64,000 nucleotides of DNA from an uncultured Verrucomicrobiota bacterium (GTDB lineage Bacteria > Verrucomicrobiota > Kiritimatiellia > JAAZAB01): NCBI GenBank assembly GCA_964617825.1, contig CAZTWL010000006.1:23315-87314 (forward strand), read 5' to 3'. The notes beneath the pieces are model-generated. The model did not search any database. It saw only the letters and a program-made list of their open reading frames with translations, and was not told the DNA's origin. The position numbers were made by a program, and so were the translations under genes. Numbering within the stretch: position 1 is the stretch's first letter; each line of letters starts with the position of its first letter. Positions 44,283 through 61,576 of the stretch are shown in pieces.

Positions 44283-44477
44283 GTGCAAGAACAAGAACGC
44301 TGGCTCTCGGTCGAGGAGATTGCCGTCCACCTAGGCGTCAATCGGGACACGATTTACAAGTGGATTGATCGGTGTCAGATGCCCGCCCACAAGCTCGGTA
44401 AGCTTTGGAAATTCAAGGCGACCGAGGTTGACGAGTGGATTCGAGAGGGCAAAGCAGGCGAAGGGGAACGCAAGTGA
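44283..44477 (+). CDS. small excisionase/AlpA-family HTH DNA-binding protein
   Basis: 64 aa. An LSVEEIAVHLGVNRDTIYKWI helix-turn-helix is present. This is the first gene of the lower-GC island. Confidence 0.6.
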   Translation: MQEQERWLSVEEIAVHLGVNRDTIYKWIDRCQMPAHKLGKLWKFKATEVDEWIREGKAGEGERK

Positions 44478-44511
44478 ACATGACCTCGATCATGGGAATG
44501 GGACGGACGTA

Positions 44512-47500
44512 ATGCCCCAGATATTCGACAACATCGAGAAGCACCTTCTGACGGCCCTCTCCGAAGCGATGGGACTCTCGAAGAGGTCTGATTTCTGCGT
44601 CGGCTACTTCAACCTTCGCGGATGGCGGCAGATTGATTCCTTCGTCGAGAAATGGCCTGGTGGGGACGGCAACTGTTGCCGGTTAATGGTCGGCATGCAG
44701 ACCCTTCCGGCCGAGGATCTCCACGCTGCCCTCAGTCTCGCCACAACACCAGCCCGCATGGACAACGCCACGGCGCTCCGTCTGAAGAAGGCGCTGGCGG
44801 AGGAGTTCCGTAACCAGCTCTGTATCGGCGCGCCTACCGAAGATGACGAACGTGGCCTCCGCCGATTGGCCGCCCAGATCAAAGCGCAGAAGGTCGTCGT
44901 CAAACTCTTCGTCAAGCACCCGCTGCATGCCAAGCTCTACCTCCTTTTTCGCCCAGACCCGATCAACCCCATCGTCAGTTATCTCGGCAGCAGCAATCTC
45001 ACCCTGGCGGGCCTGTCCAAACAGGGCGAGTTGAACGTGGACGTGCTCGACCATGATGCCACCCAGAAACTCGCAAGGTGGTTTGAAGACCGATGGAACG
45101 ATCACTGGTGCCTCGATATCTCGAAGGAGCTGGTCGAGATCATCGAAACGAGCTGGGCGCGAGAGACGCCCATCCCGCCGTATCACATCTACCTGAAGAT
45201 CGCCTATTGCCTCTCCCAAGAGGCCCGCGCTGGCCTCACCGAGTTCCGCATCCCCAAGGAGTTCGGGAACAAGCTCTTTGATTTCCAGAAAGCTGCGGTC
45301 AAGATCGCCGCTCATCATCTGAACAAGCGTCACGGCGTTATGATCGGCGACGTGGTCGGGCTGGGCAAGACCATCATGGCAACCGCCGTGGCCCGCATCT
45401 TCGAAGATGACCACGGTCTGGAGACCCTGATCATCTGCCCGAAGAACCTCGTTCGCATGTGGGAGGACTACAAGGAGCAGTACCGGCTGCATGCCAGGGT
45501 TCTCTCCATCACCCGGGCCATTGCCGAACTGCCCGAGTGTCGCCGTTACCGTCTCGTCGTGGTGGACGAGAGTCACAACCTCCGCAACCGCGAGGGCAAG
45601 CGCTACCACGCCATCCGCGACTACATAGAGAAGAACGAAAGCCGTGTTATCCTGCTGTCGGCCACGCCTTACAACAAGAGCTACCTCGACCTGGCCAGCC
45701 AACTCCGACTCTTCGTTGCCGAAGACCGTGACCTCGGCATCCGCCCGGAGCGCTTGCTTCAGGAAGTTGGCGAGACCGAGTTCATCCGACAGCACCAGTG
45801 CGCGGTCCGTTCGCTCGCTGCTTTCGAGCACAGCGAACACCCGGACGACTGGCGTGAACTCATGCGACTCTACCTTGTCCGTCGCACGCGCAGTTTCATT
45901 CAGGACAACTATGCGCAGTATGACCCCCAGCGGAAACAGAAGTTCCTGACCTTTGAAGACGGACGCCGTTCCTATTTCCCGACGCGCGTTCCCAAGACGC
46001 TCAAGTTCCGCGTGGACGAGTGCGACAAGAACGATCAGTACGGCCGCCTCTACTGCGAGGACGTGGTCAAGATCATAAACAAACTCGATCTGCCGCGCTA
46101 TGGTCTGGGTAACTACGTCGCGCCGTCGTCGGACAAGCCCCCATCACAACCCGAGGCCAAACAGATCGAGGACCTATCCCGCGCCGGCAAACGCCTCATG
46201 GGGTTCTGTCGGACGGGCCTTTTCAAGCGTCTGGAGAGTAGCGGTGCGGTCTTCCTGCAGTCCATCGAGCGCCATATCCTACGCAACTATGTCTACATAC
46301 ATGCCATCGAGAACGGTTTTCCGGTCCCCATCGGCACGCAGGATGTGGAAATGCTCGACTCGCGCGTGTACGACGAAGATGCCGACGACGTAAACGCCCG
46401 TCTCGATATTGAGGAGGACGCGACCGAGGAAGCGGCCAACGCCTGCCAGCAACCGCTGCGCACCCCAGAGCAATTCCGTGCCAAAGCCAAAGAGGTCTAT
46501 GAGTTCTACGACAAACACGCCAAGCGCCGCTTCAAGTGGCTGCGGTCCGGCCTGTTCATCGCCGAACTGCGTGATGACCTCGAAAACGATGCCAAAAGCC
46601 TGCTGAAAATTCTGAAGAGCGCCGGGCAGTGGGAACCAGCGGCCGACACAAAACTGCAGACCCTTGCCGCCACCCTCAAGAAGACGCACCCCGGCGACAA
46701 GGTTATAATCTTTACCCAGTTCGCCGACACCGCCCGCTACCTGGAGCGCCAACTTTCTGCCATGAGCGTGGACCGTATCGCGGGTGCGACCGGCGATTCC
46801 AGCGACCCGACCCTTATCGCCTGGCGGTTCAGCCCTGTGAGCAATGGCAAGTGCGCCAGTGTCGCTCCTCTCGATGAACTTCGCGTCCTCGTTGCTACCG
46901 ATGTCCTCAGCGAAGGCCAGAACCTCCAGGATTGTCACATCGTCGTCAACTACGACCTGCCCTGGGCCATCATTCGGCTCATTCAGCGTGCGGGCCGGGT
47001 GGACCGCATCGGTCAGGAGGCGGACACCATCGTCTGTTACTCGTTCCTGCCCGCAGAGGGCGTGGAGAAGATCATCCGCCTCCGCAGTCGGGTTCGCCAG
47101 CGGCTTCAACAGAACCAAGAGGTCGTCGGGGCTGACGAACTCTTCTTCGAAGACCAGCGCGACGAAGCCAAGGCACTCAACGATCTCTACACCGAGAAGG
47201 CCGGTATCCTTGACGGCGAGGCCGACAACGAAGTGGACCTTTCGTCCTACGCTTACCAAATATGGAAGAACGCCCTTGATGCCAATCCAGAACTGGAGAA
47301 GATCGTCCCCGAACTACCGCCGGTGGTGTACAGCTCGCGACCCTGGTCCCCAACTTCCGAAAAACCCGAGGGTGTCCTGGTCTACCTCAAGACAGCTGAC
47401 GGCAACGATGCCCTGGCCTGGATGAACAAAGCTGGTGAGAGCGTCACAGAATCCCAGTACGCTATCCTGCGCGCGGCCGAGTGCAAACCGGAAACGCCGC

Positions 47501-47895
47501 ACGTGTCCCGCCATGTTAACCATCATCAACTGGTGCAGGAGGGCGTCAAACTGATCGTGAAGGAGGAGCGCGCCATCGGCGGCCAGCTCGGGCGGCCATC
47601 CGGCGCGCGCTTCCGCACCTACGAACGCCTGAAAGCCCACGCCGAGGATATTGAGGGTACGCTCTTCGAGTCGACATTGCTGCACAAGGCCATAGAACAG
47701 ATCTACCGTTACCCGCTCCGCCAAACCGCCGTTGACACACTCAACCGTCAACTTCGGTCAGGCATCACCAACCAGGCGCTCGCCGATCTCGTCATGGCCC
47801 TGTACGAAGAAGACCGGCTTTGCATCGTCCATGAGAAGGAAGAAAGCCACGAGCCCCGTATCATCTGCTCTATGGGGTTGAGGGCAGGTGAGTAG
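44512..47895 (+). CDS. PLD-like (HKD) nuclease domain fused to SNF2-family helicase (DrmC+DrmD-like)
   Basis: About 1,128 aa from the ATG at 44512. Single HKD motif (HAKLYLL...GSSNLT). SNF2 motif I (GLGKT), motif II (DESH) and helicase-C (ATDVLSEGQNLQ, QRAGRVDRIGQ) are all present. Confidence 0.8.
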   Translation: MPQIFDNIEKHLLTALSEAMGLSKRSDFCVGYFNLRGWRQIDSFVEKWPGGDGNCCRLMVGMQTLPAEDLHAALSLATTPARMDNATALRLKKALAEEFRNQLCIGAPTEDDERGLRRLAAQIKAQKVVVKLFVKHPLHAKLYLLFRPDPINPIVSYLGSSNLTLAGLSKQGELNVDVLDHDATQKLARWFEDRWNDHWCLDISKELVEIIETSWARETPIPPYHIYLKIAYCLSQEARAGLTEFRIPKEFGNKLFDFQKAAVKIAAHHLNKRHGVMIGDVVGLGKTIMATAVARIFEDDHGLETLIICPKNLVRMWEDYKEQYRLHARVLSITRAIAELPECRRYRLVVVDESHNLRNREGKRYHAIRDYIEKNESRVILLSATPYNKSYLDLASQLRLFVAEDRDLGIRPERLLQEVGETEFIRQHQCAVRSLAAFEHSEHPDDWRELMRLYLVRRTRSFIQDNYAQYDPQRKQKFLTFEDGRRSYFPTRVPKTLKFRVDECDKNDQYGRLYCEDVVKIINKLDLPRYGLGNYVAPSSDKPPSQPEAKQIEDLSRAGKRLMGFCRTGLFKRLESSGAVFLQSIERHILRNYVYIHAIENGFPVPIGTQDVEMLDSRVYDEDADDVNARLDIEEDATEEAANACQQPLRTPEQFRAKAKEVYEFYDKHAKRRFKWLRSGLFIAELRDDLENDAKSLLKILKSAGQWEPAADTKLQTLAATLKKTHPGDKVIIFTQFADTARYLERQLSAMSVDRIAGATGDSSDPTLIAWRFSPVSNGKCASVAPLDELRVLVATDVLSEGQNLQDCHIVVNYDLPWAIIRLIQRAGRVDRIGQEADTIVCYSFLPAEGVEKIIRLRSRVRQRLQQNQEVVGADELFFEDQRDEAKALNDLYTEKAGILDGEADNEVDLSSYAYQIWKNALDANPELEKIVPELPPVVYSSRPWSPTSEKPEGVLVYLKTADGNDALAWMNKAGESVTESQYAILRAAECKPETPHVSRHVNHHQLVQEGVKLIVKEERAIGGQLGRPSGARFRTYERLKAHAEDIEGTLFESTLLHKAIEQIYRYPLRQTAVDTLNRQLRSGITNQALADLVMALYEEDRLCIVHEKEESHEPRIICSMGLRAGE

Positions 47896-47931
47896 TAATT
47901 AGACAATGCAGAAACAACAAGGAGGCTTCGT

Positions 47932-48270
47932 ATGGCGGAGAAATGGACGCAGGAATTACGAAGGATTGCTTTTGCGCGTTTAGCCATGGAGTTTGGCTCG
48001 CAATATTGGGATAAAAACAAGACAGAACTATCCTTCCCAAAACTTACGACTGAGGATGAGGTGTTGGAGCAGATTGCCCGGTACCTCACATGGTTCACTG
48101 GCGAGACGTTTACGGGCAAGAACGTCAACGCACAACTCGCATGGGCAAAGACTGAGCAAAAGCAGGTCATGAAGACCCAGACCAAACAGTTCGTCCTGTG
48201 CCAGGCGGCAGCCTATGAGGTTGGTTTGATTCGCAACCAACCCGCACGTGCGACGACTATTGGTGTATGA
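47932..48270 (+). CDS. hypothetical 112-aa protein between helicase and methyltransferase genes
   Basis: The ORF has a plausible RBS and sits inside the operon. No similarity recognised. Confidence 0.4.
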   Translation: MAEKWTQELRRIAFARLAMEFGSQYWDKNKTELSFPKLTTEDEVLEQIARYLTWFTGETFTGKNVNAQLAWAKTEQKQVMKTQTKQFVLCQAAAYEVGLIRNQPARATTIGV

Positions 48271-48312
48271 TGCTTTGGCAATATAAGCTTTCAGGATTTC
48301 TTCGAAATCGGA

Positions 48313-51300
48313 GTGGATACATTCATGAACAAAGCCACCGCCCGTGAACTCCTTCGCCAGTTTGACTTCAAAGCGCTCTTCCTCAACGAACTCGGCTGGG
48401 ACGATCACGACGGCTCGCTGCCCCTCAAGGTCGGCGAGGATACTGTCACATTGACCGCGGTCGCCGAGAAGCGCGGCATGGCGGCTTACCTTTGCGTCGT
48501 GCCCGGACAGAGGCGATCCTACGACTACCAGACGCGCTGCAAGATCGAAATCCAACTCGCCAAGAGCGTCCGCGAGCATCTGGTCATTTACGCCGATCCC
48601 AACCGTCGCTTCCAGACCTGGCAGTGGGTTAAACGTGAGCCCGGCAAACCTATCGCCCGCCGCGAGCACACGCTCACCGCCAACCAATCCGGTGAGGCTC
48701 TTCTCCAGAAAATTGAAGCCCTGGAGGTCAAGATCGAGGAAGAGGATCAACTCACTCTCGTCGGCATCACCGCGCGTGCACGCCAGGCATTCGACGTGGA
48801 CCGCGTCACCAAGCGCTTCTACGACCGCTTCAAGACCGAGCACGCCGCCTTCCTCAAACAGATTGAAGGCATTGGCGACGAAGACGAGTGCGAATGGTAC
48901 GCATCGATCATGCTCAATCGTCTCAAGTTTGTGTACTTCATTCAGAAGAAGGGTTTCCTCGACCAGGACAAGGACTACCTGCGCAACCGTCTTGCCATGG
49001 TCCAGAAGACCCGACCAAAGACGAAATTCCTCACTTTCTACCGAGCTTTTCTATTGAAGCTCTTCCACGACGGCCTCGGCCGCAAGGAACGCAGTCCCGA
49101 GCTGCACAAACTTCTCGGCACTGTGCCATATCTGAATGGCGGTATCTTTGCCGTCCACCCTCTGGAGGAGAAATACACCGGGATTGATATCCCGGACAAA
49201 GCCTTCGAAAAAGTTTTTGCTTTTTTTGACCAATACCGCTGGCATTTGGACGAGCGTCCCCTCCGTGCCGACGACGAGATCAACCCCGATGTTCTCGGCT
49301 ACATCTTCGAAAAGTACATCAACCAGAAGCAGATGGGGGCCTACTACACCAAGGAAGATATTACCGAGTACATCGCCAAGAACTGCATCGTTCCCTTCAT
49401 CCTCGACCGCGTCGAAACAGACCTCAAGAAGAAACCGGACGCCTTCCGCGCCCTTTTCCAACTGTTGGCCGCCGATCCTGACCGCTACATCTACGATCCC
49501 GTTAAACACGGCGTTGTGCTACCGCTACCGCCCGAGATCGAAAAGGGTGTGGATACGAAGAAGCCGAATCTTATGGAACGCCGCGCTGCCTGGAATAAAC
49601 CCGCCTCATCCGAGTATGCCCTTCCGACCGAGATCTGGCGTGAGGTCGTCGCCCGTCGTCAGCGCTGTGCCGAGTTGCGAACTCGCCTTTCCGCCATTAT
49701 GCCCGATGCCGCCCAATCATTCACAGCAAACGAACTGATCACCCTCAATCTGAACATTCGCCAGTTTGCCCAGGACTGCATCGAGAACGCCGCCACCCCG
49801 GACGTCCTCTGGGCGTTCTGGCAGGCCATCGAACAGATCACTGTCCTCGACCCCACCTGCGGATCAGGTGCATTTCTGTTTGCGGCTGTCAACGTGCTGG
49901 AACCGCTCTACGAAGCTTGCCTGGACCGTATGAAGGCGTTTATGCTCGAATGGCGCCAATCTATCAAGGCACCGTACCCCAACTTCTACAACAAATTCGA
50001 CGCCGTCATTGCGCGCGTCGAAAAACACGCCAACGAAAAGTATTTTATCTTCAAGTCCATTATCATTCGCAATCTCTACGGCGTCGACATCATGGATGAG
50101 GCTGTCGAGATCTGCAAACTACGTCTATTTCTTAAACTTGCTGCCCAGATCGAGCCTGATTATTCTCAAGAGAATCTTGGTATAGAGCCCCTGCCGGACA
50201 TTGATTTCAATGTCCGCGCTGGCAACACGCTAGTTGGCTTTGCCACGGAGAAACAAGCCGAGGAAGTCATCCGACAGGATCTGTTGGCCTACAACACCGT
50301 TTGGCCGGAGGTTCAGCGTGATGTCAAAGAGATCGCGGAGATGTTTGCCTTGTTTCGGCAGCAACAGACAGACCTGGGTGGTGCAGTATGCTCAGAAGAT
50401 AAAGCGCGTCTTCGCAAACGTATTACGCCTCTTGAGGCGCGACTCAATCAGTATCTAGCAGATGCTTACGACATCAACACGAAGGCTGCCGTCAAGGAGT
50501 GGGTTTCAAAGCACAAACCCTTCCACTGGTTTATCGAGTTTTATGCCATTATTTCGAGTGGTGGATTCTGTGTGGTCATAGGTAACCCTCCTTATGTGGA
50601 GTGCCATAAGAACACCAAAGGGACAATTGCCCTTGTGGATGAATACAAGACGCACGATACCGCGAACCTATATCCGTTTATAGTGGAGCGTTCCACGCAT
50701 CTCGTGCGGCCCCGCGGCAGTCTCGGTGTCATTCTACCCCTCAGCGCATTCTGTACTCAGAGAATGGAACCTCTCGTTTCGCTCATCGTCGAACTTCCTG
50801 GTGACAAGTGGATCTCCCACTTCGGGTGGCGACCGGCTACACTCTTTAGTGGTGTTAACATCCCCCTGTCAATTATACTCTGCTTACCGCACTCAGGTTC
50901 ACGGCTGTATACCACGACCTTCCAAAAATGGTACCAAGAAGCCCGTGATTACTTATTTTCACTGATCCAATACGCCGACACCGAAGGATTTGTTCAGAAC
51001 AAATACGTCATCCCTAAGATCGGCAACTCTACGGAACAGTCCATTCTTCGCAAGGCCTTCTCGCAAGGTAAGACTGTTGCCGCTTACCTCGCCGGTGGGA
51101 AACAAGGCGCGACATTATACTACCGGAATACAGGTGGGCTCTATTGGCGGATCATCACCGACTTCCAACCATTGTTTGAACTAGATCACACGAGAATGGC
51201 CTCAAGCACGGAGTCAACACTCATCCTCCGCGATACCAAAGCCCTTAGTGCAATAACCGCGGTCCTTAATACCAACTTCTTCTGGCTCTACTACGTAGTC

Positions 51301-51639
51301 TATTCCTCGTTCCACCACGTAAATCCTATCGACATTCTCACCGTACCGATCGATCTTGAAAGCGTTTCGCCAGATCTGTTGAAGAAGCTCTGTGACTGTG
51401 AGCGGAGACTCATGGATGACCTTAAGGCCAAAAGTCAGATACGACTCCGCTGCCACAAGGGTGGCAACGAGAGCAGTGCCCAGACGTTCTTCCCCTCCAG
51501 ATCCAAACCACTCGTCGACGCCACGGACATCGTCGTGGCTATGCACTATGGGTTTTCCCCGCACGAACTAGACTACATTCTCAACTACGACATCAAATAC
51601 AGGACGGTAGGCACGGCCGACGAGGAGGAAGACGAATGA
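48313..51639 (+). CDS. large N6-adenine DNA methyltransferase (Eco57I/DrmMI/PglX-like, gamma-class)
   Basis: 1,108 aa. SAM motif I (VLDPTCGSGAFL) and catalytic NPPY (VIGNPPYV) are present, with long N- and C-terminal extensions. Confidence 0.8.
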   Translation: MDTFMNKATARELLRQFDFKALFLNELGWDDHDGSLPLKVGEDTVTLTAVAEKRGMAAYLCVVPGQRRSYDYQTRCKIEIQLAKSVREHLVIYADPNRRFQTWQWVKREPGKPIARREHTLTANQSGEALLQKIEALEVKIEEEDQLTLVGITARARQAFDVDRVTKRFYDRFKTEHAAFLKQIEGIGDEDECEWYASIMLNRLKFVYFIQKKGFLDQDKDYLRNRLAMVQKTRPKTKFLTFYRAFLLKLFHDGLGRKERSPELHKLLGTVPYLNGGIFAVHPLEEKYTGIDIPDKAFEKVFAFFDQYRWHLDERPLRADDEINPDVLGYIFEKYINQKQMGAYYTKEDITEYIAKNCIVPFILDRVETDLKKKPDAFRALFQLLAADPDRYIYDPVKHGVVLPLPPEIEKGVDTKKPNLMERRAAWNKPASSEYALPTEIWREVVARRQRCAELRTRLSAIMPDAAQSFTANELITLNLNIRQFAQDCIENAATPDVLWAFWQAIEQITVLDPTCGSGAFLFAAVNVLEPLYEACLDRMKAFMLEWRQSIKAPYPNFYNKFDAVIARVEKHANEKYFIFKSIIIRNLYGVDIMDEAVEICKLRLFLKLAAQIEPDYSQENLGIEPLPDIDFNVRAGNTLVGFATEKQAEEVIRQDLLAYNTVWPEVQRDVKEIAEMFALFRQQQTDLGGAVCSEDKARLRKRITPLEARLNQYLADAYDINTKAAVKEWVSKHKPFHWFIEFYAIISSGGFCVVIGNPPYVECHKNTKGTIALVDEYKTHDTANLYPFIVERSTHLVRPRGSLGVILPLSAFCTQRMEPLVSLIVELPGDKWISHFGWRPATLFSGVNIPLSIILCLPHSGSRLYTTTFQKWYQEARDYLFSLIQYADTEGFVQNKYVIPKIGNSTEQSILRKAFSQGKTVAAYLAGGKQGATLYYRNTGGLYWRIITDFQPLFELDHTRMASSTESTLILRDTKALSAITAVLNTNFFWLYYVVYSSFHHVNPIDILTVPIDLESVSPDLLKKLCDCERRLMDDLKAKSQIRLRCHKGGNESSAQTFFPSRSKPLVDATDIVVAMHYGFSPHELDYILNYDIKYRTVGTADEEEDE

Positions 51640-52412
51640 AAAAGGCACTGTGGAAAGCACTTGCAGCGGTTACTGCGAAGAAGAAGACAAACTACACCGA
51701 ATCAGAACTGATTCTCCCAGCCTTGAGGCTCTTGGCTGGTCGCACTACCCCCGTTACGACATCCGACTTGATCGCCCAACTGGAGGCCGATCTTCGTCCC
51801 AAAGGTCACGACGCAGAACTGATCCAAGGCCGCAATGACACCTACTTTAGTCAGAAGGTACGGAACCTCAAGTCACACGATTCATTGAAGCGCCTGAGAC
51901 TCGCGAAACACCATGCAGGGAAGTGGCAGATTACAGAAAGCGGTAGGGACTTCCTTGCAAACAGCACATTGCATGTTGAAAGCATGCTGAATCAAGGCTT
52001 TAGACCCCGGTGCCTGAGCAGACGTGATCAGTTTGACTACTCCAAGCTTGTCATAGAGGAGGGAGCAAGCATTCCTACTTTAGGTCAGGCACGCAAGAGA
52101 AGCGACAGATTGAAGGCTATCGCCATTTCATCTTTCAAAAGAGACAACAAAGGGCGCGTATTCTGCACCGTGTGCGACTTTGACTTCGCCCGCAAGTACG
52201 GTTCTCACGGACGAGGCTTCATCGAAGTACATCATCTGGATCCCATCTTTGAGAAAGATGTGCGGGGAGAAAAGGTTCAACTGCTAAAGGCTCTGACCAG
52301 AGTCACACTTGTCTGCTCTAATTGTCATCGTATGATTCACCGCCGCAAAGGACACATGCTTGGGATAACAGCATTGAAGAAGCTTGTCTTGGCGCATAAG
52401 TGCAAGTCGTAG
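51636..52412 (+). CDS. HNH endonuclease with N-terminal winged-helix-like domain
   Basis: The C-terminal CxxC...HH...CxxCH HNH motif (CTVCDF...EVHHLDPI...CSNCHRMIH) is present. The start codon overlaps the MTase stop (ATGA). Confidence 0.75.
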   Translation: MKKALWKALAAVTAKKKTNYTESELILPALRLLAGRTTPVTTSDLIAQLEADLRPKGHDAELIQGRNDTYFSQKVRNLKSHDSLKRLRLAKHHAGKWQITESGRDFLANSTLHVESMLNQGFRPRCLSRRDQFDYSKLVIEEGASIPTLGQARKRSDRLKAIAISSFKRDNKGRVFCTVCDFDFARKYGSHGRGFIEVHHLDPIFEKDVRGEKVQLLKALTRVTLVCSNCHRMIHRRKGHMLGITALKKLVLAHKCKS

Positions 52413-52461
52413 CCGAACGCAGGTATCCTCACTGAAAATAGGAAAGCGGACTAGCCAACGC

Positions 52462-53058
52462 ATGAAGACACTGCGCACAGCCGGGAACTATATCCTTCTC
52501 AACCGTCCCAAGATCGCCCTGTACTGTTCCGCCAAGTGCCCGGGCAAACTGATCCTGGACACTTACGACCTCGCCAAGCAGTGCCGGGAAAAGGGTGTCA
52601 CGGTCATTAGCGGCTTTCATTCCCCGATGGAGGAGGAGTGCCTCCGTATCTTGCTCCGCTCGACGCATCCGGTAATCTGGTGCCTTGCCCGCAGCATGCT
52701 TAAACGCATTCCCACAAAGCCCGTTGATTGCCGCGCCGCAGTCGCCGAAGGTCGCCTCTTGATCGTATCACCATTTAAAGATACCGTTCGCCATATCACG
52801 GCCAAAACCGCTATGGCCCGTAACCGATTCGTCGCTGAAAAGGCATCTGCTGTTGTTGTCGCCCACGCTGCCCCCGGCAGCAAGATCGAAGCCCTCAGCC
52901 TGGAACTACTTGCCGTTGGCAAGCCTCTCTACACCTTTGACCACCCCGCCAATGCAGTCCTTCTCACTCAAGGCGCAAGAGATATACGTCAACTTAACCT
53001 CGCGGAATTTGCATACATGAGAGGTAAGGTGACCTGCTCCCCAAAAACTGATCCATGA
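52462..53058 (+). CDS. DprA/Smf-like (SLOG superfamily) Rossmann-fold protein
   Basis: The ALYCSAKCPGKLILDTYDLAKQCREKGVTVISGFHSPMEEECLRILL pattern parallels the DprA Rossmann core (xxGSR...vvSGlArGiD..ah). The six-frame ORF starts at 52384. Confidence 0.45.
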   Translation: MKTLRTAGNYILLNRPKIALYCSAKCPGKLILDTYDLAKQCREKGVTVISGFHSPMEEECLRILLRSTHPVIWCLARSMLKRIPTKPVDCRAAVAEGRLLIVSPFKDTVRHITAKTAMARNRFVAEKASAVVVAHAAPGSKIEALSLELLAVGKPLYTFDHPANAVLLTQGARDIRQLNLAEFAYMRGKVTCSPKTDP

Positions 53059-53294: not shown

Positions 53295-54758
53295 CTAACT
53301 ATTCAAGTCAGAGGCCGTTTTCAACCTGCGCAAAATATCAATCAATCCCCCGGTGTCCTGCCCGCAATACTTTAACAGTTGTTTCCGCACCTTCTGCCTT
53401 TCCTGTTGGGGCACGTCGCCGAACGTCACCCGCATGAATTCATCGGCGGCAACGGAACCGCCGGCAATTTCCATGTTGGCATAAGATCGGTCCGTTATGG
53501 CTGGCATTACCCGCTTTAGTGAATTGCTGCCATACTGATTAGGATGATGATAGTCCGCTTTTCTAAAGGGCGCAATCAAATCCTTAATGCGTGGCAGAGC
53601 CCGGTTGATCCACGGGCGATGTTCAGGAAACGCCTGGGCCATTTGATCCAGCATGGATTTCTCGAATGCCATATTAAACGCCAAGATGGTGGCGGAATTG
53701 CCAATATGCTGCTTCAAGTTCGACAGCAATGCCGGCCGGGGATCGTGCCTGCCTTCCGCTAGAAATTCATGATGGACCGGTTGCGCTTTAAGTCCCGATA
53801 GGATGTGCAGCGAATACTGGAAGGGGATCTGCTGAAAAGGCTTGGTGCCGTCGTAGAGGGGGATTGCCGTATTGAATGACTCAAAATCCAGAAACCGGAT
53901 CGGATATTCAAGATCAGCCAGGAACTCCCTGATTGCTTCGGGATTAATATGCGGCTTGCGGGTCTTCACGCATTTGATCTGGATGCGCTGGTAAAGGCTT
54001 AATGTTGTGTTGGCGGGAATATCCCGGATATGAAGAATGCCTTTTTCCATAAATTCAAAGGCCCTGGCGCCGATCCGGTGTAAGTCAAAAACGTTATGTT
54101 TAGGGAGAAAGGCCCAGCATTGATCCTGGAACGGGCAGGCATAAGGCGAACTACAATGCGGGCCGACACGAATGTTAGGACATTTGGTATCCAGAGCCTT
54201 GATCATGACCGCAACCGATTTGGGCACGTCGCGAATCAACTCAGATACCTCCTTGGATATCAGGTTTACGTTGAATAGTTTGCTAACCTTGATCGGTCCA
54301 TTCTTGACATAATCACTGTTTATTGTGGCAATCCGACATTGACGGACAGGCAGGCCGGATTTGTCGCAAACGTATTTCTGAAACGCAACGTCCTGATAAT
54401 AGCAGTCTTTTATTTTTGCCGATGATTTGACCTCCACTATATCCCATCCACCCCGGACTGGTGCCAGGATGTCGATCTGGGCATACAGGTTGCCCGAGCC
54501 AATCGCCGCCTCATAAATGGGCTTCCGTTGAGTTAATGCGGCCTGGGTAGCTTTGATCCGGTCCGATATGCTCGATGTCGTATCAATCGCTATGCCGTCG
54601 GGGAATAGATTGCGGGCGCATAGGCCGACTTCCTGGCCGGCCATAAGGATTTTCTGGCGGGCAGCATCATAGACTATCAGCTCGGGCCGATGGATCCGAT
54701 TCCACAGGTATTTGAGACACTGTAATCCGGCCATGTAGCTGCTTTTGGATATATGCAT
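53295..54758 (-). CDS. DUF2779-like protein with N-terminal PD-(D/E)xK (Cas4/RecB-like) nuclease motif
   Basis: The N-terminus MHISKSSYMAGLQCLKYLW, a DIVEVKSS motif and conserved Cys residues match DUF2779. Confidence 0.5.
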   Translation of the reverse strand: MHISKSSYMAGLQCLKYLWNRIHRPELIVYDAARQKILMAGQEVGLCARNLFPDGIAIDTTSSISDRIKATQAALTQRKPIYEAAIGSGNLYAQIDILAPVRGGWDIVEVKSSAKIKDCYYQDVAFQKYVCDKSGLPVRQCRIATINSDYVKNGPIKVSKLFNVNLISKEVSELIRDVPKSVAVMIKALDTKCPNIRVGPHCSSPYACPFQDQCWAFLPKHNVFDLHRIGARAFEFMEKGILHIRDIPANTTLSLYQRIQIKCVKTRKPHINPEAIREFLADLEYPIRFLDFESFNTAIPLYDGTKPFQQIPFQYSLHILSGLKAQPVHHEFLAEGRHDPRPALLSNLKQHIGNSATILAFNMAFEKSMLDQMAQAFPEHRPWINRALPRIKDLIAPFRKADYHHPNQYGSNSLKRVMPAITDRSYANMEIAGGSVAADEFMRVTFGDVPQQERQKVRKQLLKYCGQDTGGLIDILRRLKTASDLNS

Positions 54759-54891
54759 ATCAGGATTCCTTTATGCTTTTAGCATGGTGTTACCTCCGAT
54801 TCAATTACAGCTTAACGGAGTTGATCTGTCTTCTTCAGAATACGAAGATTTTATCCGGATATCCTCCTGGCCTTGATTATTATTTCTTAAA

Positions 54892-55434
54892 CTACAAGCA
54901 TCCATTTATAACCCTGAGAATAACCCATCGCTCTTGCATGTCATCCCAGTAATGCAGGCTGAAACGCAACGCCGGATATTGCTTTGAGACCTGTTGTAAC
55001 CATGGATATGGCGGACTCCACGGCGTTTTGAATTTATAAAATAACCGACGCTTGGATTCGCGAACAAGCTTGGATTCAGACGTGTCCCATTTGCAACCCC
55101 AATGCTTTATGCACCAGGGAATAATCGGATCCTCATAATCATTGTCGCCCACTTTAACGTATGGCTTTTTGGTAACCGCCAAGGGAACCGGCACCAATCG
55201 GTCAAAACTCAGGTCAACGACCACAGGCTTGGATCCCTTTCTCCCAGACTGATGATTGTCATCTCTTTCTTTTATTTGGTAAAAAGAATTGCTTGTCCAA
55301 GCCGCCTTGGTTGTTTTGAGACGATTATAATTTGTTTTTGCAGAGAAATATGAATCCCTGTTTTGGGCCCTAAACGTTGCAATATCTTGTGCAGGCCCAA
55401 CAATATATAATTTATTACGCACCCAGTTTGGCAT
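54892..55434 (-). CDS. hypothetical protein (possibly DUF1281/Api92-like)
   Basis: Likely start MPNWVRNKLYIVGP. Trp/Pro-rich. Low-GC. Confidence 0.3.
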   Translation of the reverse strand: MPNWVRNKLYIVGPAQDIATFRAQNRDSYFSAKTNYNRLKTTKAAWTSNSFYQIKERDDNHQSGRKGSKPVVVDLSFDRLVPVPLAVTKKPYVKVGDNDYEDPIIPWCIKHWGCKWDTSESKLVRESKRRLFYKFKTPWSPPYPWLQQVSKQYPALRFSLHYWDDMQERWVILRVINGCL

Positions 55435-55438
55435 GATG

Positions 55439-55801
55439 TTATTCATCCTGCTTTTCATCTTCGATCCTTGCAACAGGCACGTCGACAATCGTTATTGTGT
55501 CGGTGCCAAAAGTGGACAGAATCGGGACGAACATCGGCGCTACACGCCATTCTTCTATAACAGGGTCGGCAGCCTGGATCATTGCACGCACCTGCATGCG
55601 CTTGAGCAGCCACCTGCTATGGCACCTGGCACATTCAATCACTTTCCCGACAGCCTCCGATGCCGTATCAGCCTCCTCGCAATTAGAAACCTGGTATTCC
55701 TGATTGCTGGGGCATTGCTTGCATCCTATGGCTATGACCACGATGTTACCGCTCAGTTCTTCCTGCTCTTCCTTTGCCGGTTGCAGCCTGTTCGTTTGCA
55801 T
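55439..55801 (-). CDS. small Cys-rich (zinc-ribbon-like) hypothetical protein
   Basis: CxxC...CxxCH pattern (CKQCP, CARCHS). Likely start MQTNRLQP. Confidence 0.3.
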   Translation of the reverse strand: MQTNRLQPAKEEQEELSGNIVVIAIGCKQCPSNQEYQVSNCEEADTASEAVGKVIECARCHSRWLLKRMQVRAMIQAADPVIEEWRVAPMFVPILSTFGTDTITIVDVPVARIEDEKQDE

Positions 55802-55891
55802 AATACCTCCCCTCATTTATTGGTTTTATTTTCGGTTAATTCATGCTTACATCGCCGAATAATGAGTATTTCTTTTTTTCTGCGGCCAATG

Positions 55892-55924
55892 TAGCATGGG
55901 ACATAGGACAAACATCGTCCTAAG
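55892..55924. promoter_or_regulatory. conserved 33-bp motif TAGCATGGGACATAGGACAAACATCGTCCTAAG containing palindrome GGAC-N7-GTCC; second copy at 57774-57806
   Basis: Seen directly. Copy 1 lies in the divergent promoter of the WYL regulator gene. Copy 2 lies between the Sel1 gene and the 57891 gene. The copies are 29/33 identical. Confidence 0.5.
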
Positions 55925-55948
55925 CAAATAATAATTGGATTTATTTTT

Positions 55949-56929
55949 ATGTCGGATCCCAAGTTCAAACCCCAGTTTCGAAGACTTCAATTCATCGATG
56001 AGCAGATCCGGGCGGGTAAATACCCCAATTGCTTCCAGATGGGCAAAGAGCAGGAGGTCAGCTATAAGACCATCCAGCGGGATATTGATTACATGAAATA
56101 TGAGCTGGGGGCGCCCATTGAATACGACAAGGTCAAACGCGGCTTCCGTTACACCGATAACACCTGGTTTCTTAAATCTGTTCTACTGTCAGAAGGTGAG
56201 CTTTTTGCCATGCTGGTGGGCTCCCAGGCCATGACGATGTACCGGGGTATGCCGGTAGCCAAGGAGCTGGAGGCGATATTCGGTAAGTTGGCGGCCTGTC
56301 TGCCAGATAAATTGACCGTTTCGCCCGAGCTGATCTATTCACGGTTCACGTTCAGTGGGCCGCCGGCCAAGGTAATCCGCGAGGATGTCTGGAAAGGGGT
56401 AGTGCGGGGCTTGATGAACCAGCGCGAACTGGAAATACGCTATCAATCACTCCACGCGCAACAGCCCAAAACGCATGCAGTCCAGCCCTGCCACCTGGCC
56501 AATCTGGATGGTGAATGGTATTTGTTCGCCTATGACCCCAAGCACAAGGAAATTGTCCAGTATTCCGTCGGACGGATTGAATCGGTCACGGTGAGCGAAC
56601 GCACGTTCACGCTTCCGGCAACCGTCAACATGGGAAAGTTGCTGGCCGATCGTTTTGGCCGGTTTATACACAGCGAGAAATATAAGCCGATTGTCGTCCG
56701 GCTGCTTTTTGATGCGAAGCTGGCCGCCTATATTTCGGAAAAGACCTGGCATCCCGGGCAAACACTCAAGCCCCGGCGCGGAGGCGCGGTAGAATTATGC
56801 CTGCCGGTGCCGGCTGTCCGGGACGTGAGGCCCTGGATTATGAGTTTTGGTTCGAAGGTCAAGGTCCTGGCGCCGAAATCACTGGCCGAAGCGATCAGGC
56901 AGGAACATTATCAGGCTGCAAAGGTATAA
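55949..56929 (+). CDS. WYL-domain transcriptional regulator (BrxR/CapW-like: N-terminal wHTH + WYL + C-terminal domain)
   Basis: A literal WYL motif (DGEWYLFAYDP) is present with an N-terminal HTH. The 326-aa length is typical of BrxR-family regulators in defence islands. Confidence 0.7.
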   Translation: MSDPKFKPQFRRLQFIDEQIRAGKYPNCFQMGKEQEVSYKTIQRDIDYMKYELGAPIEYDKVKRGFRYTDNTWFLKSVLLSEGELFAMLVGSQAMTMYRGMPVAKELEAIFGKLAACLPDKLTVSPELIYSRFTFSGPPAKVIREDVWKGVVRGLMNQRELEIRYQSLHAQQPKTHAVQPCHLANLDGEWYLFAYDPKHKEIVQYSVGRIESVTVSERTFTLPATVNMGKLLADRFGRFIHSEKYKPIVVRLLFDAKLAAYISEKTWHPGQTLKPRRGGAVELCLPVPAVRDVRPWIMSFGSKVKVLAPKSLAEAIRQEHYQAAKV

Positions 56930-57017
56930 TAAATCTAGTGAGAAATAGCATTAAGAGCTTTCTGAGCCTCTGCTTCTCCCTGCTTGGCTGCCTTTTGAAA
57001 CTATTTCACGACCTTGG

Positions 57018-57659
57018 CTATATCCTGAAGTATCCCGTCGCCGTTCGCATAACATAACCCAGGATTATTTTGCACTCCTGCATCTCCCTGCTTGGCCACC
57101 ACGCTATGGCCTTGGTTAAATCCTTGGGCACACCATTGCCGTTCGCATAAGATAAACCAAGATTAATTTGAGCCTCTGCAACACCCTGCTCGGCTGCTTT
57201 CTGCCACCACTCTGTTGCCTTGGTTAAATCCTTGGGCACGCCTTCGCCATCTAAATAACATACCCCAAGATTAAATTGAGCATCTGCATCTCCCTGATCG
57301 GCGGCCTTCTGATACAATTCTACGGCCTTGGTTATATCCTTTGAAACGCTAGTACCGTTTTCATAAAAGACTCCAAGGCAACATTGAGCCGCTGCATTTC
57401 CCTGATCCGCTGCTTTCTGAAACCATTCTGCTGCCTTGGTTAAATCCTCGGGTACACCTTCGCCCTTCGCATAACATAGACCAAGATTAAATTGAGCGTC
57501 TGCATCTCCCTGACCGGCGGCCTTCTGATACAATTCTACGGCCTTGGCTATATCCTTGGAAACGCCATTGCCGTTTTCATAACATACCCCAAGATTAAAG
57601 CGGGCAGCTGCATCTCCCTGATCGGCTGATTCGGCTAATTTGTTGAGATTTTTACGCAT
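57018..57659 (-). CDS. Sel1-like repeat (TPR-like) protein
   Basis: Six repeats of A(Q/A)xNLGxCYxxGxGVxKDxxKAxEWxQKAA. Confidence 0.75.
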   Translation of the reverse strand: MRKNLNKLAESADQGDAAARFNLGVCYENGNGVSKDIAKAVELYQKAAGQGDADAQFNLGLCYAKGEGVPEDLTKAAEWFQKAADQGNAAAQCCLGVFYENGTSVSKDITKAVELYQKAADQGDADAQFNLGVCYLDGEGVPKDLTKATEWWQKAAEQGVAEAQINLGLSYANGNGVPKDLTKAIAWWPSREMQECKIILGYVMRTATGYFRI

Positions 57660-57773
57660 ATGGCGTTCTCCTATTAGAGCCCTGTAATATGGGCTGCATC
57701 TACAGTAAGTATTTTTAGCCACGACATTCCTTTATTGTGAACCTCTTTAGTTTCCTTATTTTTGCTCCCACGA

Positions 57774-57806
57774 TAGCATGGGGCATAGGACAAACAGCGT
57801 CCCAAG
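57774..57806. promoter_or_regulatory. second copy of GGAC-N7-GTCC-containing motif (TAGCATGGGGCATAGGACAAACAGCGTCCCAAG)
   Basis: See 55892-55924. Confidence 0.5.
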
Positions 57807-57890
57807 AAAAAATTATTAGGATTGTTTTATGACGGTTCGCGAGTTTAATCTGTAACAGGAGACATAAAATCACATAGAGGCCTATCATCT

Positions 57891-58457
57891 ATGATCGACA
57901 GCGAAACAGCCAAAGTTATAGCCCGACTGTTAAGCGAGAGACTGGTTCAGCTTGGCAAGGAGGGCAAACAATGGGCTCCTGATCCATTTGAACCCAAGCC
58001 AGCCGTGACGCTTCGGAAAGGGATTGATATGCTGGAGGACGCGCTGAACAATCTGATTCAGTCAACAAGCGCAATTGAAAGGGAGTGCAATAAAAGCCTG
58101 AATAATATGCCGTGTGAATCAACAGGTATGGCCGATATGTCCGCCATCGAAGAGGCCGTGGCCAGAATCTTGGCGCATGTTCGGGCCATCTATCGCGTCG
58201 AGTTTCGTCTCGCCCAGGTAACGCCGCCACGGCTTCTGGAAAACTGTTTTCGTCTATTTCAGGGGATCGGACACCGGTTCGCCGGCAAACTAAACAATGC
58301 GGCCCTTGACATTAACCAAAAAGCAGAAGGTCCTTTTAAAACCGGCGTAATCTATACAACATACACCTTAGGCTTTGAACCAAACGAGGAGCAACTCGTT
58401 GCCGAATTCAACCGCGTTAGGGATGTTATTCGGGAGGTTGGGCAGCTGAAGCGCTAG
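57891..58457 (+). CDS. hypothetical protein
   Basis: 188-aa ORF downstream of the conserved motif. No domain recognised. Confidence 0.4.
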   Translation: MIDSETAKVIARLLSERLVQLGKEGKQWAPDPFEPKPAVTLRKGIDMLEDALNNLIQSTSAIERECNKSLNNMPCESTGMADMSAIEEAVARILAHVRAIYRVEFRLAQVTPPRLLENCFRLFQGIGHRFAGKLNNAALDINQKAEGPFKTGVIYTTYTLGFEPNEEQLVAEFNRVRDVIREVGQLKR

Positions 58458-58774
58458 CGCCGGCACATAAGGGGTAAGTCCGAGATTCTTGGTATTTGAT
58501 ATAGTTTTCTTCGCAGGCGATGGAATTCGGGTCTTTGCCGCGCTCAACAAGCCCTGCTGTTTTGGACACAGAGGTCCGATGCCCCATCGCCAAGCGCCCT
58601 GCGATCCACTCCGCGCCAACACACGTTCGACGACTTAACCACCACCCCAGAATTTGTTTCCGCTTGGCCCCTTCCTTCAGCGTCGTTACCGCATGCTTTG
58701 CGCTTGTTCCGCTTTTATCCGCATTGTATCCTCGCCGTGTACCGGATGGAATTCTTCCCCTTCGAGTTGCAGAT

Positions 58775-59383: not shown

Positions 59384-59664
59384 AACCATCGAACAAGCGC
59401 GGCCGCCGCTCGCTCATCGTGCGCTCGTTTCTCCGCGCCGCCGTATGTCTCGCGTCGCTTCCCCTCCATTTTCACCCTAACCGATTCTAAAAGTTTCTCG
59501 CGATACTCGTCTCCCCTTGGGACAGCAGCCGCCATGAGGAAGTGCAGCATAGATAGCGGCATCAAGGCCGCCACGGTCTGCGCCAGTCTGGACACCGGAG
59601 ACTATTTTGGCTATGGGCACGGGATTTCCAGACTACGGTAATTAAAAGGCGATTGGGAATAAGA

Positions 59665-60234
59665 TCATTTATACTGGTTGGCAATTTCTTTTGCTTTATT
59701 CACCATATCGTCTTTCGTAACATTTTTGGCCCTTACATAGAAAGACGACACAACCTTGCCGCCTTTTTGCGTTACCTTTTCGGTCATGGTTTTTATGGCC
59801 TTGTCGGGACTACCCCCTCCCAAGGTGACAAAAACAACAACTGACTTGCCTTTGAAGTCTACCTGTTCAATAAACGCATTGAACTCCGGCGTGGGCATGC
59901 TGAACCAGACCGGGCAACCCACAAAAATACGGTCGTAACCGGATAAATCCTTGTTGAAAGGCTTTACCGGCCAGGATTTCCCCTTTATTGATGCCTCTCT
60001 TCCGGCGCCATAGGCCATCTCTTTTGACGGCTTGGTGACATCTTCCAATTTGATTACATCGGCTTTAATCATTTCTGCCAGGGTTTTTGAGACCAGCTCT
60101 GTATTCCCGGACCAGGAATAATATACGATGAGATTTTTCATCGTTGCCTGGTTTTCTTCAGCCTTGGCAGCCATCACGGTAAATAAGCCAATCATAACTG
60201 TCAGCATGACCAATCCGATAATCAGTTTCTTCAT
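59665..60234 (-). CDS. flavodoxin-like protein with signal peptide
   Basis: Likely start MKKLIIGLVMLTVMIG. The LIVYYSWSGNTE flavodoxin phosphate-binding loop is present. GC is about 45%. Confidence 0.55.
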   Translation of the reverse strand: MKKLIIGLVMLTVMIGLFTVMAAKAEENQATMKNLIVYYSWSGNTELVSKTLAEMIKADVIKLEDVTKPSKEMAYGAGREASIKGKSWPVKPFNKDLSGYDRIFVGCPVWFSMPTPEFNAFIEQVDFKGKSVVVFVTLGGGSPDKAIKTMTEKVTQKGGKVVSSFYVRAKNVTKDDMVNKAKEIANQYK

Positions 60235-60298
60235 TTGTTGCCCTTTCATTGTATGTTTCCGAATGTCTTTCGTGTGGTTTCCGGTTGGCAGCATTATT

Positions 60299-60487
60299 TT
60301 ACAACTTTCTTTGGCCTTTAACATGAATTTTAATATTTCGTCGTTTGAATGTCGGACTGTCCAGGTTCTTGTTTTCCGCCACTGTTTCTTCCACATCCTT
60401 GACCCCGAACAATGCCTTTGTCCTGATTAAAGTCTTCAATTCTTCCATCTCACGTTCCAGCTTTGTCAGGCGTTCTTCAATCGTCAT
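60299..60487 (-). CDS. possible small coiled-coil protein
   Basis: 62-aa ORF (MTIEERLTKLEREMEELK...). The only support is the ORF itself. Confidence 0.2.
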   Translation of the reverse strand: MTIEERLTKLEREMEELKTLIRTKALFGVKDVEETVAENKNLDSPTFKRRNIKIHVKGQRKL

Positions 60488-60537
60488 GGCAGTTCCTATT
60501 GTTCCGGCAAGCGCTATCGCCTCAAATCTATTTTCAT

Positions 60538-61188
60538 CTAATCCTGCTTTCTGACAAGCCTTACGCCCATTTCATAAGCTTTTTGACAATCCTTTGGAAA
60601 TATCTCTTTCTTCCTTTTCAACTTCTCGCCAAGATTAAACCGGGACGCAACATACTTCGAATAATCATCAAACTGATAGGTGTCAAAACACAAGAGCCTT
60701 TCGCTTGGTCCAAAGATTCTTGCGAGAAAGCGTTCCGTATTTGCGAAACGCTGCTCATAACCGAATTCTTTCATCAGCCTTTCGGGAAGACCCATGGTAT
60801 AAATAAACCCGGTAGATATTTTCTTGGGAAAAAGAGTCTCGGGAGGATCAGTATATGTCAGGTATGGGAAAACTAACCGCTCGATAAATGACTGCATCTC
60901 CCCGGTAATGCTTCCTAAATATATAGGCGAGCCGAAGATAATGGCATCGGACTCCTCAACTCTCTTAAAGATGGGCTTAAGAGCGTCTTTTATTGCACAT
61001 TTGCCATAGCTCTTGCCGCCTTTTTCCTTGCAGGCAAAACAACTGATGCAGCCTTGATATTTCAAATCATATAGATGGATAAGCTCTGTTGTTGCGCCTT
61101 GCGATGATGCACCTTCGAGGGCTTTTTTAAGCAGGGTTGCCGTGTTCCATTCTTTTCTCGGACTGCCGTTAAATGCGATAATATTCAT
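60538..61188 (-). CDS. flavodoxin-family NADPH-dependent FMN reductase-like protein with CxxC pair
   Basis: The MNIIAFNGSPRKEWNT start and SPIYLGSITG match the flavodoxin-like fold (NADPH-dep FMN reductase). A CISCFAC motif is present. Confidence 0.6.
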   Translation of the reverse strand: MNIIAFNGSPRKEWNTATLLKKALEGASSQGATTELIHLYDLKYQGCISCFACKEKGGKSYGKCAIKDALKPIFKRVEESDAIIFGSPIYLGSITGEMQSFIERLVFPYLTYTDPPETLFPKKISTGFIYTMGLPERLMKEFGYEQRFANTERFLARIFGPSERLLCFDTYQFDDYSKYVASRFNLGEKLKRKKEIFPKDCQKAYEMGVRLVRKQD

Positions 61189-61387
61189 TGGGATACCTCC
61201 TTTACAAATCAGTTTAATATGAGGAACACTTCAGCATATTACATCCTGACTCACGGCCTGTCTTTAGGCCGTTTCCGAAAATCCCATGGCGGCTCCGGGT
61301 TCTTGTCTGCCCAAAGTCCCTTTTACCAGCCTTGGCTTCATCCTAGGCCTCAGCCAACCGCTTGTCATCCGAGTATTTTTTGTAGTG

Positions 61388-61576
61388 TCAGGCAAACCCG
61401 TCCTGGACCATCTCAATATTTATCCCGCGCTCGCCGAGGTAAATATCGCCCAGGATGCGGTTGTAGAGATCCCGTTTAGCCCATTTTATCTCGACCTGCT
61501 GGCCGAATAAAGCCCAAATACAAGTCGCCGTCGTGCAGGGAGAGGAGGATGTCAACACAGTATTGGAGTTTGGCAG
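61388..61576 (-). pseudogene. remnant of a thermonuclease (SNase-like) gene
   Basis: The C-terminal peptide ...KRDLYNRILGDIYLGERGINIEMVQDGFA resembles the SNase C-terminus (...YGRLLAYVY.DG...N.ELV.QGLA). It is preceded by a duplicated leader but lacks the N-terminal two-thirds. Confidence 0.3.

Follow-up and report, generated by a model that had tools for sequence, protein, structure and literature searches.

Introduction

The closest described relatives of the regulator treated here are the BrxR and CapW repressors of phage-defence islands (BrxR of E. fergusonii pEFER and Acinetobacter; PMC9122601, PMC9122589), which combine a winged helix-turn-helix (wHTH) with WYL and WCX domains, DriD of Caulobacter crescentus, a WYL transcription activator switched on by single-stranded DNA (PMC9186387, PMC10853764), and PafBC, an HTH-WYL-WCX activator of the DNA-damage regulon in Actinobacteria. 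BrxR is associated with dyads of 5-bp spacer placed between promoter and gene, and has two such boxes, R-BOX1 and R-BOX2, within its island (PMC9122601). DriD has a site near its own start codon, suggesting autoregulation (PMC9186387). The present analysis concerns a stretch of 64 kb (the window) on contig CAZTWL010000006.1 of an uncultured Verrucomicrobiota bacterium (GCA_964617825.1), in which a 33-bp element occurs on either side of a WYL regulator gene: site 1 lies directly 5' of that gene, and site 2 beyond its 3' end, next to a Sel1-repeat gene. With a probability of roughly three in four, the element is the promoter and operator of the neighbouring WYL regulator, and site 2 is a selected relic of it that wires an extra gene into the circuit.

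The locus resembles the BrxR and CapW systems in the wHTH-WYL-WCX architecture of its regulator, and BrxR in having inverted repeats with a 5-bp spacer between a promoter (here predicted) and the regulator gene, in a second related box in the island (R-BOX2 there, site 2 here) and in its defence-island location. It differs from both in the length of the protein (326 aa against about 295) and of the dyad arms (7 bp against 10-11 bp), in its directly adjacent genes, which are not a recognised defence system, and in its weaker sequence and fold similarity. DriD is the best structural match, is of the same length (327 aa) and likewise has palindromic sites of ~20 bp, one of them close to its own start codon. 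However, sequence identity to DriD is only ~18%, and the operators are unrelated in sequence (ATACGTCCGTTTCTGGCGCA for DriD, TAGGACA-N5-TGTCCTA here). DriD sites lie at activated promoters just 5' of the -35 and serve a regulon of DNA-damage genes (didA, recA), whereas the window regulator has as its conserved partner an operon for a Cas4-like nuclease and repeat proteins, and several paralogues of the regulator occur per genome. By sequence profile PafBC is the best match in the PDB, but it forms a heterodimer or is a fusion of two copies, acts at promoters without a -35 and binds no simple palindrome in vitro; the window regulator has a palindromic candidate operator, and no proteasome or Pup context is present in the window.

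Two copies of the element and the extent of the repeat

The two copies of the 33-mer in the window are both on the + strand (site 1, TAGCATGGGACATAGGACAAACATCGTCCTAAG; site 2, TAGCATGGGGCATAGGACAAACAGCGTCCCAAG; Table 1) and share 30 of 33 bases, with mismatches at positions 10, 24 and 30. Both sites are divergent intergenic regions, site 1 lying between a 125-aa gene, orf125 (start 55816), and the WYL gene, and site 2 between the Sel1-repeat gene (start 57662) and a relic ATG, which is followed by a gene for a 188-aa protein. An earlier note on this DNA had placed two copies in divergent promoter regions flanking the WYL gene, which is borne out by these exact matches; its count of four variable positions was wrong, position 9 being G in both copies. 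The 33-mer had no match in 100 shuffles, even with three mismatches tolerated, and AGGAC-N7-GTCC is confined to the two sites (3 strand-wise matches against 0.28 expected), while a relaxed search of the window (at most 3 mismatches) returned extra matches at chance level (11 against 7.3 expected). At 58560-58592 on the - strand, ~105 nt past the 188-aa gene, on the opposite side from site 2 and where GC content climbs again, CGATGGGGCATCGGAC is followed by GGAC-N6-GTCC, with a spacer one base shorter; this weak inverted sequence, with 13/16 matches to the left part, was rejected as a third copy because it is at chance level and has the wrong spacing.

The repeat exceeds 33 bp. Between 55869-55946 and 57751-57828 identity is 77% over 78 nt (repeat family D3), and the alignment runs on through a common GGATT...TTTTATG into the ATG and ~8 codons. 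The eight-codon peptide at site 2, MTVREFNL, is clearly akin to the start of the WYL protein, which reads MSDPKFKP in the window and MTAQKFKP in the orthologue of contig L003. The earlier note had allowed that the motif might turn out to belong to a longer dispersed repeat unrelated to regulation. A longer repeat is literally present, but it copies the promoter and 5' end of the regulator itself and is no unrelated dispersed element.

Table 1. Coordinates of the 33-bp element and of the features around it (positions in the window)
Feature	Position	Strand	Basis and remarks
HKD(PLD)+Snf2 helicase	44365-47895		PADLOC C3a139, 5e-51
Type IIG restriction-modification (RM) enzyme	48313-51639		PADLOC, E=0
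Mrr_N-like protein, 258 aa	51636-52412		
DprA/PsyrA-like protein, 224 aa	52384-53058		Overlaps the Mrr_N-like gene
DUF2779 protein, 487 aa	53295-54758	-	Pfam 6.8e-39; conserved last gene of the operon
DUF1281_C (Api92-like) protein	54892-55488	-	Pfam 5.5e-8; second gene of the operon
orf125, Cys-rich small protein	55439-55816	-	First divergent gene; homologues in the divergent operons of L001, L003, L009 and L013
Site 1 33-mer	55892-55924	+	-10-like TAGCAT, GGGACA spacer, dyad; 25 nt 5' of the WYL start codon
Candidate -10, TAGCAT	55892-55897	+	Predicted rightward (WYL) promoter, followed by a discriminator-like GGG run
Dyad 1, TAGGACA-AACAT-CGTCCTA	55904-55922		7-bp arms, 5-bp spacer; candidate operator
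WYL regulator gene, 326 aa, wHTH-WYL-WCX	55949-56929	+	Pfam, AF2 model, fold matches
Out-of-frame Sel1 continuation, …KQGDAGVQNNPGLCYANGDGILQDIAKVVK*FQKAAKQGEAEAQKALNAISH*	56935-57100	-	Three-frame translations: frameshift and internal stop
Sel1-repeat gene	57018-57662	-	Pfam Sel1 7e-63; 5 intact repeats, degenerate 3' end; convergent with the WYL gene
Extended duplicated segment	57751-57855	+	Relic of WYL promoter, leader and first 8 codons; flank identities 49-69%
Site 2 33-mer	57774-57806	+	Identical to the version 5' of the L001 orthologue
Dyad 2, TAGGACA-AACAG-CGTCCCA	57786-57804		Candidate operator
Relic 8-codon open reading frame (ORF), ATG ACG GTT CGC GAG TTT AAT CTG TAA	57829-57855	+	MTVREFNL and stop; aligned to WYL 5' ends
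188-aa gene	57891-58457	+	Function unassigned; 3' of site 2, same orientation as the relic promoter
Terminator-like hairpin and T-run	58480-58492	+	23 nt past the 188-aa stop; consensus scan, such matches being about as frequent in shuffled sequence

Conservation of the proposed operator across the regulator family

Close orthologues of the WYL regulator (73-79% identity, metagenome contigs L001-L009) share the 33-mer and its distance from the ATG, and the element is kept at the orthologous loci L001, L003, L006, L007, L009 and L012. An exact scan for CATAGGACAAACANNGTCCNAAG covered 241 million metagenome records and found the sequence at four places, all of them directly 5' of a WYL orthologue. 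A motif scan of species-representative genomes, which do not include the source genome, found none, and neither the motif nor WYL relatives were found in viral contigs.

The core of the element extends well beyond the close orthologues. More distant relatives of the regulator (33-53% identity) were collected at 80 loci from Kiritimatiellae, Lentisphaerae, Verrucomicrobiota, Planctomycetota and Desulfobulbales, and 78 of these were scored for GGACA-N5-TGTCC, with at least 9 of 10 positions matching, within 200 nt 5' of the WYL start. The dyad is present there in 51 of the 78, against 0.014 occurrences per 200 nt elsewhere in the same loci, and the loci that bear it stem from Kiritimatiellae, Lentisphaerae, Verrucomicrobiota and Desulfobulbales. 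Judged by this enrichment, the dyad is almost certainly the regulator family's own operator. The motif occurs 5' of every close orthologue and its core in these 51 distant loci, which upholds the proposal that it is a conserved cis-regulatory site linked with the WYL regulator.

Across 67 aligned sites, information content is 1.0-2.0 bits per position in the arms and 0.1-0.4 bits in the 5-bp spacer. Two flavours of the dyad are distinguishable, TA-GGACA...TGTCC-TA and (A)C-GGACA...TGTCC-G(T), and they track the residue x at the start of the recognition helix in S-x-KTIQRD, with Y, A or T accompanying TA-GGACA and Q accompanying C-GGACA (mutual information 0.81). Such co-variation of helix and operator is as expected if the WYL protein reads the dyad, though the correlation is confounded by phylogeny.

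Extra dyads precede neighbouring genes in other loci of the family, where the genes behind them encode ARPP-1, AAA ATPases, DnaB_C, a DnaA-like ATPase, FtsK+DUF2779, a Pol III alpha-finger protein, trypsin-like proteases and TPR/Sel1 proteins. Examples are the Pol III alpha-finger gene (L017, 6560-7897), FtsK+DUF2779 (L019) and ARPP-1 (L023). With so mixed a set of apparent targets, the clade may have a role in defence or in the response to DNA damage. Many of the Lentisphaerae-type paralogues (L016-L041; for example L027, 2189-2250) have two dyads ~44-45 nt apart, at about -84 and -39 from the WYL ATG, and several genomes (JBAXMA, CAITZM, CAYYAR, CAZHRU, CAIVSY and JBAZTQ) encode at least two WYL paralogues. 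Two relatives of 51% identity (L012, 160-243; L013, 6915-7000) have a conserved insert of ~70 nt between operator and WYL start (TTGTGTTGAYCC...GTCATGGAAGGGATAATAAG), which may be a second promoter.

Differential decay and origin of site 2

At site 2 the 33-mer matches that of L001 at 33/33 positions and those of L003, L006 and L007 at 91-94%, while outside it identity to any orthologue is 49-56% in the 45 nt upstream, 60-69% in the 27 nt leading to the ATG and 50-65% in the coding relic. Compared with L001, the core (33/33) and the flanks (53/90) differ strongly (Fisher p=9.6e-7), whereas site 1 is without such a contrast (p=0.28), its flanks being conserved too. Because the 33-mer is intact while its flanks have decayed, it appears to be under purifying selection or to have been recently converted from an unseen paralogue. 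The signature of selection speaks for site 2 as a functional copy of the motif, as the earlier note had taken it to be. The part retained comprises the -10-like hexamer and the dyad, oriented rightward.

Gene order in the orthologues bears on where site 2 came from. The Sel1 gene faces the WYL gene directly, as the first divergent gene, in L003, L006 and L013. The Sel1 protein of the window is 68% identical to that of L007 and 56% identical to that of L009, both encoded within divergent operons (in L007, WYL facing DUF1281_C, Sel1, ankyrin and DUF2779; in L009, WYL facing DUF1281_C, Sel1 and orf125, with DUF2779 further on). From these arrangements, Sel1 is normally part of the divergent operon, and in the window it is displaced and appears damaged at its 3' end. 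Since orthologues place Sel1 divergent from WYL, the Sel1 gene, the 33-mer and the WYL start codon at site 2 are best read as a second copy of the ancestral module, from which WYL was lost after codon 8.

The Sel1 gene consists of tandem units of 108 nt (4-6 copies, 60-81% identical), and the corresponding repeat family, D2, reaches 56963. The final one and a half repeats lie outside the reading frame and include a stop codon, and this 3' damage could be true decay or an error in the assembly of the metagenome-assembled genome.

Affiliation of the WYL regulator

The regulator belongs to the HTH-WYL-WCX superfamily that includes PafBC, DriD, BrxR and CapW, as all three of its domains are present. 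The WYL domain (Pfam PF13280, E=1.3e-14) spans residues 151-215 and the C-terminal WCX domain (PF25583, E=1e-14) residues 247-320. The AlphaFold2 (AF2) model, built with 36 homologues and with a predicted local distance difference test (pLDDT) score of 77.5, contains a winged HTH, a WYL and a WCX domain, the first of these formed by three helices and a beta hairpin at residues 6-68 (pLDDT ~88-92). The Foldseek alignment to DriD is full-length, HTH included, and PF08279 (HTH_11) is carried by two of the 526 WYL regulator homologues detected, several of which bear the source annotation 'proteasome accessory factor B'.

By both profile and fold scores the regulator is nearer to DriD and PafBC than to BrxR and CapW. 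Profile searches of the PDB gave 5.5e-16 for PafBC (WYL plus WCX), ~1e-12 for DriD, 1.6e-8 for BrxR (WYL domain only) and 1e-6 for CapW, and Foldseek gave 4e-16 for DriD (C-terminal domain, template modelling score 0.78), 3e-13 for PafBC, 5e-10 for CapW and 2e-9 for BrxR. The description 'BrxR-like' therefore suits the layout of the locus, with its 5-bp-spacer dyad, second box and island setting, but not the family of the protein.

Anatomy of the 33-mer

The dyad form common to the two sites of the window is 19 bp long, TAGGACA-N5-YGTCCYA. Dyad 1 sits 27-45 nt 5' of the WYL ATG, its place relative to the promoter being given by the predicted -10 only. The commonest layout (15 of the 67 aligned sites) has a TAnnnT hexamer whose end lies 8 nt before GGACA, with a conserved A (1.0 bit) at the matching column; because of this spacing, TAGCAT (TAACAT in some orthologues) is best read as a -10, with the dyad near +1. 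A sigma-54 promoter was also considered, as TGGAGC-N5-TAGCA in orthologues fits GG-N10-GC, and was rejected because the GG is unconserved at both window sites.

The divergent operon as a probable conserved target

The earlier note passed over the operon divergent from the WYL gene at site 1, orf125-DUF1281_C-DUF2779, which on comparative grounds appears to be the conserved target of the regulator. DUF2779 proteins are encoded in 15 related loci and reach 71-75% identity in the close orthologues. They are interpreted in the literature as combining a Cas4-like PD-(D/E)xK nuclease with a predicted 3'-5' exonuclease domain, and have no characterised function (PMC13621843, PMC3985635). Orthologues of the DUF1281_C protein (65-68% identity) adjoin the WYL gene in L007 and L009, and orf125 had no Pfam match. 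No paper was found in the literature that links WYL with DUF2779 or describes this WYL clade.

Among relatives whose WYL protein is 73-79% identical (L001, L003, L007, L009 and L013, compared with window positions 53295-57662), DUF2779 stays at the end of the operon, and the genes that are reshuffled or swapped include orf125, Sel1 or TPR, ankyrin, DUF1281_C, a trypsin-like protease and two Endonuc_Holl genes. This reshuffling looks like cassette exchange. In L001 a serine recombinase adjoins the WYL gene.

Proposed mechanism and alternative explanations

If the 33-mer is the promoter and operator of the WYL gene, the WYL protein, whose gene begins 25 nt downstream, would bind TAGGACA-N5-YGTCCYA as a dimer. 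At site 1, binding would fall between the predicted -10 and the ATG and so would most likely autorepress the WYL gene, a layout also reported for BrxR and, at its own gene, for DriD. The same dyad would also govern the divergent orf125-DUF1281_C-DUF2779 operon, the dyad centre lying ~60 bp upstream of its predicted leftward start, a position compatible with DriD-like activation or with repression via an unrecognised promoter. By analogy with DriD, PafBC and CapW, the signal would be a nucleic-acid ligand of the single-stranded DNA type, sensed at the WYL domain. Site 2 would have arisen when a module of Sel1 and WYL, diverging from a shared intergenic region, was duplicated or recombined in beside the first, after which the second WYL gene would have been deleted beyond codon 8 and the flanks would have decayed while selection held the 33-mer. 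Through site 2 the WYL regulator would now act on the 188-aa gene to the right (most likely) and perhaps on the damaged Sel1 gene to the left.

Several points weigh against this scheme. At the threshold used, 27 of the 78 family loci are without the dyad. All promoter assignments are consensus guesses and the promoter positions are unsettled; a generic sigma-70 scan proposes instead a rightward AGGACA-16-AATAAT that overlaps the dyad. A leftward promoter-like TTGGCY..., seen at site 1 and in orthologues, is unconserved at site 2, and because of this, together with the damaged 3' end of the gene, regulation of Sel1 from site 2 is doubtful. The one genomic context of a 188-aa homologue that was scanned (L090, 168-1569) has no operator dyad. 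A WYL paralogue encoded outside the 64-kb window could also be the true binder of site 2, or the donor in a gene conversion that mimics selection.

Because the retained -10 and dyad face right and the leftward promoter sequence is unconserved, it is chiefly the 188-aa gene that site 2 appears to serve. Its link with the WYL operator appears specific to this genome, since its homologues sit elsewhere and the scanned context has no dyad. Of the regulon that had been drawn over Sel1 and the 188-aa gene, the signature of selection at site 2 counts in favour; control of Sel1 is in doubt, and the link with the 188-aa gene is seen in this genome only.

Of the alternatives, the one that survives best, though improbable, is that site 2 is a dead remnant, left by partial duplication of the WYL 5' end, and controls neither the 188-aa gene nor Sel1. 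It would account for a repeat that spans leader, ATG and eight codons before running into a stop, for the decay of the adjacent Sel1 gene and for the homologue context devoid of an operator. It accounts poorly for a 33-mer unchanged from the orthologue consensus between adjoining flanks that have diverged by 31-51%, as neutral decay at the flank rate would leave 33/33 positions intact with a probability of ~1e-6; a dead relic can be reconciled with this in one way, by recent gene conversion from an unseen paralogue.

It is considerably less likely still that some factor other than the WYL protein binds the motif, or that WYL cassettes carry it along as a site of recombination or of a mobile element. 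The shuffled gene order near WYL among close relatives, the serine recombinase in L001 and the weak inverted sequence at the island edge (58560-58592) would fit such a site, but that sequence is at chance level as a third copy, and the motif is not dispersed (two copies in 64 kb, four exact metagenome matches and none in viral contigs). The dyad moreover keeps a fixed short distance 5' of the WYL start across phyla and in varied neighbourhoods, and co-varies with the recognition helix.

Finally, the dyad is very unlikely indeed to work as RNA, as a hairpin in the 5' untranslated region serving stability, attenuation or translation: the 33-mers do fold (-7.1 and -8.1 kcal/mol, z-scores -2.8 and -2.1) and the dyad would be transcribed if TAGCAT is the -10, but such a hairpin is expected of any DNA palindrome, Rfam has no match for the motif, the arms are conserved as primary sequence from bacteria of the Planctomycetes-Verrucomicrobia-Chlamydiae (PVC) group to Desulfobulbales while the loop varies, many sites have an uncompensated change in one arm (for example TGACC or GGTCA), and in the window the stem is short and its innermost positions (A and C) are unable to pair.

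The 188-aa gene and the island setting

The 188-aa gene is real and represents a rare family. Its coding score is positive in its own frame only, and an exhaustive HMMER search returned three remote full-length homologues (49, 37 and 30% identity), on which grounds the reading of this ORF as a non-gene was rejected; a word-indexed search matched the protein to itself only. Pfam, NCBIfam and PADLOC gave no match, and the AF2 single-sequence model (pLDDT 45, all-helical) was too poor for a structure search. The homologues are found after an unknown 237-aa gene, after an MmeI-like RM enzyme and beside Fic/HTH genes, contexts that hint at a defence- or mobile-element-associated family. In L094 (2-3784) the homologue is the second gene after the MmeI-like Type IIL RM enzyme, which itself includes an IS200-like Y1 transposase segment.

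A dip in GC content from ~50 to 58.5 kb of the window covers the WYL region. The block at 44365-53058, directly 5' of the WYL module, gives it what its gene content marks as a defence-island setting, with the Type IIG RM enzyme and the HKD+Snf2 helicase 4-11 kb upstream (Table 1). PADLOC gave no match for the genes beside the operators (orf125, DUF1281_C, DUF2779 and Sel1) save weak repeat matches. In L001 an SNF2-type helicase adjoins the DUF2779 gene, and synteny may accordingly extend past the WYL module. A second patch of low GC content (0.43-0.46), at 59500-61500, contains two flavodoxin-sized ORFs on the - strand (59665-60396 and 60538-61188).

Implications for the regulator family

The general view of WYL regulators is unchanged by these results, as BrxR and DriD already provide documented cases of autoregulatory dyads and of second boxes. 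What is added is a candidate operator for a large uncharacterised WYL clade, TAGGACA-N5-TGTCCTA in this lineage and GGACA-N5-TGTCC family-wide, together with a tie between that clade and the uncharacterised DUF2779 'solo-Cas4' nuclease; both the operator and the link appear undescribed.

A wider reading can be offered as a tentative possibility, more doubtful than not. The regulator may represent an undescribed and widespread DriD-like WYL clade of PVC bacteria and Desulfobulbales that shares one operator code and often has several paralogues in a genome, each of them gating a small and rapidly reshuffled cassette centred on a solo-Cas4/3'-5'-exonuclease protein (DUF2779), together with repeat proteins (Sel1, TPR, ankyrin) and small Cys-rich proteins. 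Such a system would be a new inducible, nucleic-acid-sensing module of defence or DNA-damage response. If this is true, operator relics like site 2 would be a mechanism by which new genes, such as the 188-aa orphan, are recruited into the circuit. On the reading preferred here, site 2 would itself be an example of regulon growth through partial duplication of a regulator's own promoter, of which the operator and the -10 alone have survived.

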